DNA of 44,706 nucleotides from a phage: NCBI GenBank assembly GCA_021454005.1, contig GCA_021454005.1_3939.1; one strand, given 5' to 3'. The notes beneath the pieces were generated by a model that made no database searches, was not told the DNA's origin, and was given only the letters and a program-made list of their open reading frames with translations. Of this stretch, positions 22,283 through 24,098 are shown in pieces. A program made the position numbers and the translations under genes. Every line of letters begins with the position of its first letter. Position 1 is the first letter of the stretch.

Positions 22283-22656
22283 GGCAGATTTTTTATAAGG
22301 CTACTGCCATCCTTCCATACCCTACCTTACCACACCTAACCATACCTAACCAAACTACACCATACAATACCTTATTAAAAGACCCTCTTAAAGACCTTTT
22401 AAAAAGGTAAGTCTCATTTTAATGTAGCTGAGACTAACTACCCACACCTTACCTCACCTGACCTGACCTGACCATACCTAGCATTACCGTGCCACACCTC
22501 ACTTAAAAACCCTCTTAGAAGACTCTTAAGTGATGTAATCGGATTTTAATGTAGCTCCGATTAACTACCCGCACTTTACCAAACCTCACCCTACCCTACC
22601 AGACCTTACCTAACCGCGCCGTACCTCATTAAAAGACCCTCTTAAAGACCTTTTAA
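22283..22656. repeat. intergenic modular repeat array A (3 units)
   Basis: Hairpins at 22283-22308, 22410-22435, 22536-22563; G-depleted tracts at 22309-22374, 22436-22499, 22564-22628; second hairpin family at 22375-22402, 22500-22532, 22629-22656. Confidence 0.7.
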
Positions 22657-22678
22657 AAAGGAGCCTCCGAAGAGGCTA
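22651..22678 (-). terminator. rho-independent terminator (UUCG tetraloop) after 146-aa gene
   Basis: On - strand: AGCCTC-TTCG-GAGGCT followed by CC TTTTT; 10 nt after stop of gene 22689..23129. Confidence 0.5.
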
Positions 22679-22688
22679 CCTAGTCAAC

Positions 22689-23129
22689 TTAGAAAGGTTT
22701 TCTACGTTGCTTGTTAATGTTAGCTTTCATAGCAGCTAAATGGTTTTGCTGTTCAATTAGTCGTGAACGTTCTTGATGGCTAAGTACCATAGTGTTCACA
22801 TTCTCAATCGCTTGAGTGGCTTGCTTTAAAGCACGACCAATCTTACCAGACATTTTACGTTTTGCAATAGTTGCTTGATGCTTAGGTTCAACCACACGAT
22901 AACCAACACCCATTGAAGCAACCAGATAAATCTTCTCTTCTTTAAGAAGCTTCTCAATAAACTTCTCAAGTCGATTTAAGCGTGTAAGCGCATAAGCCTT
23001 CATTTCATCTTCGTACTTAACAATGTCACCTTGATAAGTTGGCTTCACAATACCTAAGAAGGTGTCCATCTCAGAATGTGATACAGTGTCACCGTAACTA
23101 AACTTTGCTGCTAATGCTTTTGTATTCAT
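22689..23129 (-). CDS. hypothetical protein (cassette gene 2)
   Basis: 146 aa ORF, basic C-terminus (KANINKQRRKPF); no motif recognised; between repeat arrays. Confidence 0.4.
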   Translation of the reverse strand: MNTKALAAKFSYGDTVSHSEMDTFLGIVKPTYQGDIVKYEDEMKAYALTRLNRLEKFIEKLLKEEKIYLVASMGVGYRVVEPKHQATIAKRKMSGKIGRALKQATQAIENVNTMVLSHQERSRLIEQQNHLAAMKANINKQRRKPF

Positions 23130-23131
23130 AA

Positions 23132-23719
23132 TTAAACGTTACCTTCTGAAATAACTTCTACAGAAAAACGACCAAAGCGTGGACGCCAATCACCTACACC
23201 ACAAAGGTTGCCAGCATTTTCCAGAACCATCAGAAGTTCCTCTCTGGTGATTTGCTCTTCATCGAACATCAAACCGAACTCTACAGACCAGTCACGGAAG
23301 ATTGGGCGGTAGCTCATAACTCGTGCTGTACCAATCTTAACAGACTTAGCATAGATAAAGTCTGGATTCTTAGCAAGTTCTTGTGGGTTTGCTGGACAGT
23401 TCTTGATAGTCATTGGGAAGACTACATCTGTCAGCATAATGGCTCGGTCAATTACCTTACCAAGTTTGTTAAGTTTTGCACCAGACTTGATACAAGCCTC
23501 AATCATCTCACCGTTCATAACAAAACCTAGCTGCTCATCGTAGTAACAGGAAGTTACTAGTTGGCTTTCTGCTAAGAGCGCATAGTCTTCGTCAGTCTTT
23601 TTACGTTTACTGGACAGAGACTTGTGATATTTTGTCAGAGGGTTTAATGGGTCTGACAACGTATCGTTATGGCTCAAGAAAGGACGAGTACCAGTGATTT
23701 TGATATTTAACAGTTTCAT
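23132..23719 (-). CDS. hypothetical protein (cassette gene 1)
   Basis: Start moved to ATG 23719, which has RBS GGAG 9 nt upstream (ORF-track start 23734 has none); no motif recognised. Confidence 0.4.
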
Positions 23720-23760
23720 AGCATTTAGCTCCACACTTTAGTTGATTGTTAAGTTGTTTG

Positions 23761-24098
23761 TAAAGAACCCTCAATAGAAGACTCTTTAGAAACTTGGTAG
23801 ATTTTTAACGTGGCTACTACCATCCACCCACACTTTGCCATACCTCACCGCGCCTTACCCGACCGGGCTGCACCTTGCCTTGCCAAACATCACTTAAAAA
23901 CCCTATGAGATACCCTATCGAGTATAATTTAAAGGCTCTTAAGTGATGTAAGTCTCATTTTAATGTAGCTGAGACTAACTACCCATACCCTACTTTACCT
24001 TGCCGTACCGTACTTTACCCGACCACACCGGACAATACTTAACCCTACCTCACCCGACCGGACATCACTTAAAAACCCTCTTAGAAGACTCTTAAGTG
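23761..24098. repeat. intergenic modular repeat array B (2-3 units)
   Basis: Second-family hairpins at 23761-23788, 23891-23945, 24066-24098; first-family hairpins at 23796-23821, 23951-23976; G-depleted tracts at 23822-23890, 23977-24065. 24066-24098 equals 22500-22532; 23951-23976 equals 22410-22435. Confidence 0.7.

Follow-up and report, generated by a model that had tools for sequence, protein, structure and literature searches.

The question raised by this locus is why a Felix O1-like phage (Felixounavirus) should carry two non-coding arrays of modular repeats on either side of a two-gene cassette, and which molecule those repeats specify. The locus lies in a 44,706-nucleotide (nt) phage contig (GCA_021454005.1_3939.1, assembly GCA_021454005.1), the whole of which is referred to here as the window. 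The original prediction, drawn from the DNA letters, had described both arrays as built of the same three modules, left the cassette unassigned, considered the organisation unlike that of any described phage element, and named as candidate roles a structured non-coding RNA array, a replication origin or cluster of protein-binding sites, and recombination sites bounding a cassette. The answer reached here is that positions 22229–24159 on the minus strand almost certainly form a VIPR (Viral Interference Programmable Repeat) locus that is complete and belongs to the type II SUSP1 clade; four of its five guides match a satellite element resident in Escherichia coli chromosomes. The locus is of a kind already known, since the VIPR system, the SUSP1 clade and its target were described in April–June 2026, and the same layout, taken at first to be without precedent, was described then for phage SUSP1.

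As set out in the available text of the two SUSP1 preprints (bioRxiv 10.64898/2026.04.26.720920 and 10.64898/2026.04.26.720927), VIPR is a phage RNA-guided silencing system built on Vipr, a small RAMP protein, and an accompanying accessory gene, vap. Its guide RNAs (vrRNAs) comprise 9–16 YNNGG repeats and a conserved 3′ pseudoknot tail of ~40 nt; Vipr polymerises on this RNA with one protomer per repeat and each GGY sequestered, and the NN dinucleotides, which stay exposed, pair with duplex DNA such that every third target base is skipped, giving an R-loop triplex and repression of transcription. The same text reports the SUSP1 vrRNAs as ~100-nt small RNAs that co-purify with Vipr (small-RNA sequencing and pull-down), guide-dependent repression demonstrated with GFP reporters and phage lambda, and matches to a satellite phage in E. 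coli genomes for 18 of the 20 SUSP1-clade guides with identifiable targets.

In the window, five units of ~127 nt, all on the minus strand, flank the cassette, two upstream (array B) and three downstream (array A), and each consists of a hairpin of 16–19 base pairs (bp), a tract of 12–16 YNNGG pentamers and a pseudoknotted tail of ~33 nt. The shared modules are found where the original prediction had placed them, and a repeat search recovered five copies at 127-nt spacing (array A). The exact identities reported between the arrays (22500–22532 with 24066–24098, and 22410–22435 with 23951–23976) both hold, and a check of open reading frames bore out that neither array contains one of 60 amino acids (aa) or more. 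The arrays themselves exist as proposed, with extents corrected on re-measurement from 22283–22656 and 23761–24098 to 22282–22661 (array A) and 23756–24101 (array B). Detection of the arrays from raw sequence is sound, and four corrections to that first description were needed because it dealt with the antisense strand. The tract called G-depleted, for example, is real, but it is the complement of the 12–16 in-register YNNGG pentamers, a periodicity that had been missed.

The upstream guides are vrRNA B1 (23951–24062), with 16 repeats (24062–23983) and a tail at 23982–23951, and vrRNA B2 (23795–23887), with 12 repeats (23887–23828) and a tail at 23827–23795. Downstream, each guide is given together with its hairpin: A1 (22537–22661; hairpin 22661–22624, repeats 22628–22569, tail 22568–22537), A2 (22410–22535; hairpin 22535–22497, repeats 22501–22442, tail 22441–22410) and A3 (22282–22407; hairpin 22407–22370, repeats 22374–22315, tail 22314–22282), with 12 repeats in every case. 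The pentamers run in perfect register with zero insertions or deletions (counts of 12, 12, 12, 12 and 16), and all five tracts have the vrRNA form of 9–16 tandem YNNGG repeats in which GGY is kept and NN is hypervariable. Within the 44.7-kilobase window these five tracts are the only places where phased GGT reaches five or more per 60 nt, and the Felix O1 genome has none at that density; the loop motif TTTTAAYGTRGC has four copies in the arrays, where 0.89 would be expected over the window as a whole. A repeat logo built from 70 unique guides taken from the loci of related phages gives the Y position as T at 0.89 and C at 0.10 (T+C 0.998) and the two G positions at 0.82 and 0.98, with 1.9 bits of entropy at the NN positions. 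Repeat number per guide ranges from 8 to 19 in this set. The second unit of the relative Bas63 (around 1960–2050 of its locus sequence, L074) contains TATGG TTAGG four times over, a run that looks like slippage, and slippage may contribute to the differing repeat numbers.

The tail, first drawn as a simple hairpin, is instead an H-type pseudoknot like that of the published guides, supported by seven tail variants. In the 4-bp helix of the pseudoknot every pair forms (100%); three of the four show compensatory changes (GUAG/CUAC, GUGG/CCAC, AAGG/CCUU), and so do six of eight pairs in the tail stem. On four of five measures none of 500 shuffles reached the observed values, and slid controls were 26–45% paired, with the caveat that the structure was derived from the same sequences used to score covariation. 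The tail of vrRNA B2 is identical to that of SUSP1 vrRNA1.

The remaining module, the inter-guide hairpin (H3), had been assigned an open loop (ACCCTC..AGAAGAC) that in minus-strand RNA pairs via G·U to complete a 16–19 bp hairpin with a 3-nt loop. Folding energies of these hairpins are −14 to −29 kcal/mol for minus-strand RNA and −5.5 to −17 for the plus strand. The first (24063–24101), 19 bp including G·U pairs with a 3-nt loop, has −20.2 kcal/mol (z −6.7; −9.8 on the plus strand), and the last upstream copy (23756–23793), which lies just 5′ of the vipr ribosome-binding site and is kept in SUSP1, has −10.2 (−5.5 on the plus strand). Between B1 and B2 (23888–23948, minus strand) an insertion of ~22 nt forms an extra stem-loop (the UAUACUCGAUAGGGUAUC region), which makes this hairpin the most stable structure of the locus (−29.2 kcal/mol, z −8.1). 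A tail variant, TCGGA/TTCGA, gives a G·U pair on the minus strand and an A·C mismatch if the plus strand is read. Because the G·U pairs in the hairpins and in this variant favour the minus strand, the functional molecule is assigned to minus-strand RNA. The suggested role as a structured non-coding RNA array thus survives, its units being vrRNA guide genes, although the functional strand had been missed. Rho utilisation sites on the plus strand were also considered and rejected, as the G·U strand test points to minus. Rfam at the gathering threshold returned neither a curated family nor a ribozyme anywhere in the window; at E-value level over 22150–24250 there were chance hits only (E at least 0.7), inside or at the edge of the vipr–vap1 coding region and none in the arrays, and a tRNA search of the window gave nothing useful.

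The reader of the repeats turns out to be a product of the cassette that had been left unassigned. The 195-aa product of vipr (23132–23719, minus strand), a RAMP-family RNA-binding protein, is a full-length phmmer match (residues 1–195, E 1.5e-127) to chain D of PDB 36pp, 'SUSP1 Vipr protein', and has 97.4% identity to SUSP1 Vipr by tblastn, where membership of the SUSP1 clade was set at >90%. Vipr proteins are minimal RAMPs with an RRM core, G-loop and thumb, and the window protein retains 12 of 13 named RNA- or DNA-contact residues (H17, K33, R39, E71, M72, K82, K88, R138, C173, D177, W178 and R179). The thirteenth, 'T175' of the cryo-electron microscopy preprint, is V both in the window protein and in the 36pp chain (C173-G-V-G-D177), and is probably a numbering or naming slip in that preprint. 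Directly 3′ of vipr, the 146-aa accessory gene vap1 (22689–23129, minus strand) is identical to the SUSP1 gene at the same position at 144 of 146 residues (99%), which identifies it as a vap gene; it matches phrog_5926 and has no match in Pfam. For the cassette proteins together, Pfam, PADLOC and NCBIfam gave nothing useful.

The most specific evidence comes from the variable bases. Guides were converted to NNx patterns and compared with eight copies of the satellite island (L065, L067–L073), a target being called at a match of at least 80% of NN positions with a 1-nt skip. Four of the five guides match the island on these terms, at 84–96% of NN positions. The best match of B1 (27/32) lies in frame in a 185-aa satellite gene with the skipped base at the wobble position, and that of A3 (23/24) covers the −10 in TTGACA-17-TAGTAT, a promoter-like element just 5′ of the 185-aa gene, a placement that, judged from sequence, lends positional support to the predicted repression. 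A2 matches best in a 107-aa satellite gene (21/24) and A1 in the intergenic or 5′ region of a 234-aa satellite gene (21/24); B2 has no target in the eight satellite copies, viral contigs or metagenome contigs. The four predicted sites are at L071 8790–8824, L067 12229–12275, L070 6604–6638 and L069 6144–6178. No guide reaches 80% when the skip is set to 0 or 2 nt (a single 19/24 for A1 at a 2-nt skip), nor do any of 200 shuffles of NN order per guide. When the 70 related guides were compared with the satellite at the 80% threshold, 40 matched with a 1-nt skip, compared with 1 at a 0-nt skip, none at 2 nt and 3 at 3 nt, which independently reproduces the published skip rule. Scanning of the window, Felix O1 and other phage loci for self-targets gave best scores no higher than 0.75; no phage-locus site exceeds this background, which argues against self-targeting. 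Exact-pattern scans found no match for A2 or B2 on viral contigs or for B1 on genome contigs. Two matches of A1 on viral contigs (19/24 and 21/24), in unrelated elements, and one of B2 on metagenome contigs, out of frame, were set aside as chance.

The satellite was found by scanning the nine 3′-most NN dinucleotides of B1 over IMG/VR viral contigs, and the matching contig comes from the same metagenome as many Felixounavirus contigs. BLAST searches of E. coli genomes with array A and with the 325-aa baseplate hub gene did not find it; homologue searches with the hub protein returned ordinary phages only, and the protein shared with the satellite is the 266-aa Dit-like one. The satellite is an 11.8-kilobase island in E. 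coli chromosomes, and 532 of 5,426 complete E. coli genomes contain at least part of it. In strain WP9-S17-ESBL-11 (NZ_AP022287 2232325–2244034; L067 4451–16160) it interrupts a DUF72 gene, and other copies sit in a DUF72 gene or at other sites. It encodes a serine recombinase, HNH endonucleases and small genes of no assigned function, together with a tape-measure protein and a Dit-like baseplate protein that are 29% and 64% identical, respectively, to the phage's own. The island fits the satellite described in the supplement of the SUSP1 preprint. Two island copies carry a vrRNA of their own (L069 9948–10027 and L070 9778–9872, both plus strand), with ~10–13 YNNGG repeats, a tail stem that covaries again (GUCG/CGAC), the GUGG/CCAC pseudoknot kept and a terminator following; the island has no vipr.

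Direct reading of the SUSP1 locus places the window locus beside it in nearly every respect. The promoter, leader, inter-guide hairpins, pseudoknot tails and terminators are the same, as are the placement in the genome, with the DNA ligase gene on one side and the next operon on the other, the three downstream guides and the satellite family targeted, and Vipr and vap1 are 97% and 99% identical. The differences are that SUSP1, a Suspvirus, has one upstream guide where this Felixounavirus locus has two (16 and 12 repeats), that the extra guide, with 16 repeats, stands at the top of the reported range, and that all five NN guide sequences differ from those of SUSP1. More distant systems share parts of the design. 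In type III toxin-antitoxin loci, ToxI and pseudo-ToxI are tandem-repeat RNAs that lie by a small protein gene with a terminator between and are cut into units; the layout here is alike in its non-coding tandem array, adjoining small protein gene and intervening terminator, but ToxI units are ~36 nt and neutralise an endoribonuclease, whereas the ~127-nt units here would serve a RAMP protein, with the RNA guiding DNA binding. TRAP binds 11 G/UAG triplets with 2–3 nt spacers in the trp leader, one oligomer subunit per triplet, and phased triplets with short spacers and one subunit each recur in this locus; TRAP nevertheless forms a closed ring, senses tryptophan, regulates in cis and leaves its spacers uninformative, and it is not homologous to Vipr.

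Class 1 CRISPR–Cas effectors of the Cas7 family are closer in the protein: according to the available text of the SUSP1 preprints, they have in common with VIPR the RAMP fold with G-loop and thumb, polymerisation along a guide RNA with periodic base flipping, and a conserved structured handle that caps a variable guide. VIPR differs from them in having no spacer acquisition, repeat-spacer array or nuclease, in a non-contiguous guide that uses two of every five RNA bases and two of every three DNA bases, and in being phage-encoded and directed at a satellite. The authors of that work propose VIPR as an ancestor of CRISPR effector proteins. VIPR, which was reported only recently, recognises DNA through an RNA guide read in a non-contiguous code, and the window adds no new kind of system. 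What the window provides is an independent computational check, on another phage, of the published rules (pentamer logo, pseudoknot, 1-nt skip and satellite targeting), together with five natural guides and four mapped target sites. The inter-guide hairpins, the second upstream guide and the arrays without vipr in ~40% of related phages go unmentioned in the SUSP1 preprint text available, and the interest that remains lies in these orphan arrays, the hairpins and the guide-to-target map.

Positions 22200–24200 match 239 phage records, nearly all of them Felix O1-like myoviruses (Felixounavirus and relatives) and the top one Felixounavirus LF110P4 at 99.6%, in which the existing annotation consists only of hypothetical proteins, 'repeat_region' or predicted terminators. 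Gene order on the minus strand runs from DNA ligase (24166–25302) through the two-gene cassette to a block of small genes. Read in that direction, the elements of the locus are a promoter, two guide RNAs, vipr, vap1, a terminator, three guide RNAs and a second terminator. Promoter P1 (24132–24159, minus strand; TTGACA-16 nt-TATACT) agrees with consensus at 11 of 12 positions, has the same sequence and place in SUSP1 and Felix O1, and would drive a transcript through B1, B2 and vipr–vap1. A terminator-like hairpin 3′ of vap1 (22655–22677, minus strand; AGCCTC-TTCG-GAGGCT and a T run) has the same sequence in SUSP1, and array A would be expressed by read-through of it or from a promoter of its own. 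Array A ends at a second terminator-like element (22229–22282, minus strand), an inverted repeat forming a 13-bp perfect hairpin followed by a T run. Its loop contains the −35 hexamer of promoter P2 of the next operon (TTGACA-17 nt-TATTTT), so that terminator and promoter overlap.

The inter-guide hairpins are probably processing sites, at which the long transcript would be cut to mature guides of <100 nt. Tract and tail together measure 92–112 nt and the whole unit ~127 nt, and the hairpin, at 38–39 nt, accounts for the difference between the unit and the <100 nt reported for mature guides. The long perfect duplex, with no ribozyme from Rfam, suggests a host double-strand RNase as the enzyme responsible, which is a guess. 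By analogy with SUSP1, a Vipr filament would then assemble on each vrRNA, its NN bases would pair with satellite DNA, and the resulting R-loop triplex would block transcription, the likely role being suppression of a phage parasite in the course of infection.

Several points weigh against assignment of the locus as a working VIPR system. Expression, processing, Vipr loading and silencing are all carried over from SUSP1 by analogy, and the papers that describe them are preprints. Guide B2 is without a target in anything searched, none of the four guide matches is perfect in a sample of eight satellite copies, and the A2 site is out of step with the codon wobble position. Array A, moreover, sits 3′ of a terminator, so that its expression depends on read-through or another promoter.

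Relatives that have lost vipr bear on what the arrays do by themselves. The original prediction had looked to relatives for co-occurrence of the motifs with the cassette: the motifs are present there, but 109 of 253 related records (~40%) have a ligase-to-ORF87 junction without vipr and vap1. In such phages, among them Felix O1, Bas63, JK55 and LinBro, the same site retains its promoter and terminator along with one to three vrRNA-like units. The unit of Felix O1 is a lone hybrid that combines the first hairpin with the last tail (NC_005282 57631–57914; L027 13620–13930), and the orphan arrays of Bas63 (L074 1585–2180), JK55 (L075 1588–2315) and LinBro (L076 1589–2055) include two units in Bas63 and three in JK55. 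Of the orphan guides, one from JK55 matches the satellite at 21/24; that of Felix O1, at 16/22, is not above background. Neither the Felix O1 genome paper nor the Bas63 PhageMaP paper mentions these repeats. It is conceivable, though rather improbable, that the orphan arrays are still functional, either loaded with Vipr in trans during co-infection or acting as anti-VIPR decoys that titrate a competitor's Vipr, with the flanking-array layout making it possible to pass from one state, with vipr, to the other, and the H3 hairpins serving as the host-RNase signals of type II arrays in the role of hammerheads. In other VIPR types, according to the available SUSP1 preprint text, hammerhead ribozymes lie between the guides.

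The same relatives provide the best case for the arrays as recombination sites bounding a mobile cassette, whose function would be to move or delete it. The survival of one to three units in the 109 records is consistent with recombination between arrays, and the cassette proteins are 97–100% identical between phages where the flanking DNA is only ~90% identical. Cassette loss does appear to be permitted by the flanking arrays, because Felix O1 has one hybrid unit and no cassette, but as a by-product, since recombination between repeats is the expected side effect of any tandem array. As an account of function this proposal is very unlikely: it is Vipr, a cassette product, that reads the repeats, whose variable bases match a target outside the phage, and profile searches found no recombinase or nuclease in the cassette.

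Hardly credible, by comparison with the guide function, is that the RNA is instead a sponge or decoy titrating an oligomeric RNA-binding protein in the manner of TRAP, CsrB or pseudo-ToxI. The phased triplets with 2-nt spacers do resemble a TRAP binding site, arrays without vipr exist in related phages, and the cryo-electron microscopy preprint, in the text available, gives one protein protomer per repeat. Yet such a sponge has no need of hypervariable spacers that match a satellite under one skip rule, and searches of PADLOC and NCBIfam tie the cassette proteins to no family of toxins or defence systems. A TRAP-like ring-protein sponge was considered at first and dropped after the match to PDB 36pp, as were a ribosome sponge of Shine–Dalgarno-like GAGGT/AAGGT motifs, G-quadruplexes and a type III toxin-antitoxin (pseudo-ToxI) array, the last of which also leaves the satellite-matching NN bases unexplained. 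A transcription-primed replication origin, with a persistent R-loop formed by a G-rich, C-poor transcript in the style of T4 oriF or ColE1, has in its favour the strong promoter directly 5′ of array B and the extreme G-over-C skew of the transcript, both general traits of R-loop-forming regions. It can be dismissed with near certainty, since array A lies behind a terminator and R-loop formation requires neither a strict 5-nt register nor conserved Y and GG around free NN, and could equally do without the covarying pseudoknot and the foreign-DNA matches. A cluster of protein-binding DNA sites does not fit either.

Outside the window, ORF42 of Felix O1 (L026 22118–23533) encodes a 471-aa 'RNA-binding protein' directly upstream of the tRNA cluster. 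Its homologue in Bas63 is described in the PhageMaP preprint as resembling Ro60, with the speculation that some of the 'tRNAs' are Y RNAs.

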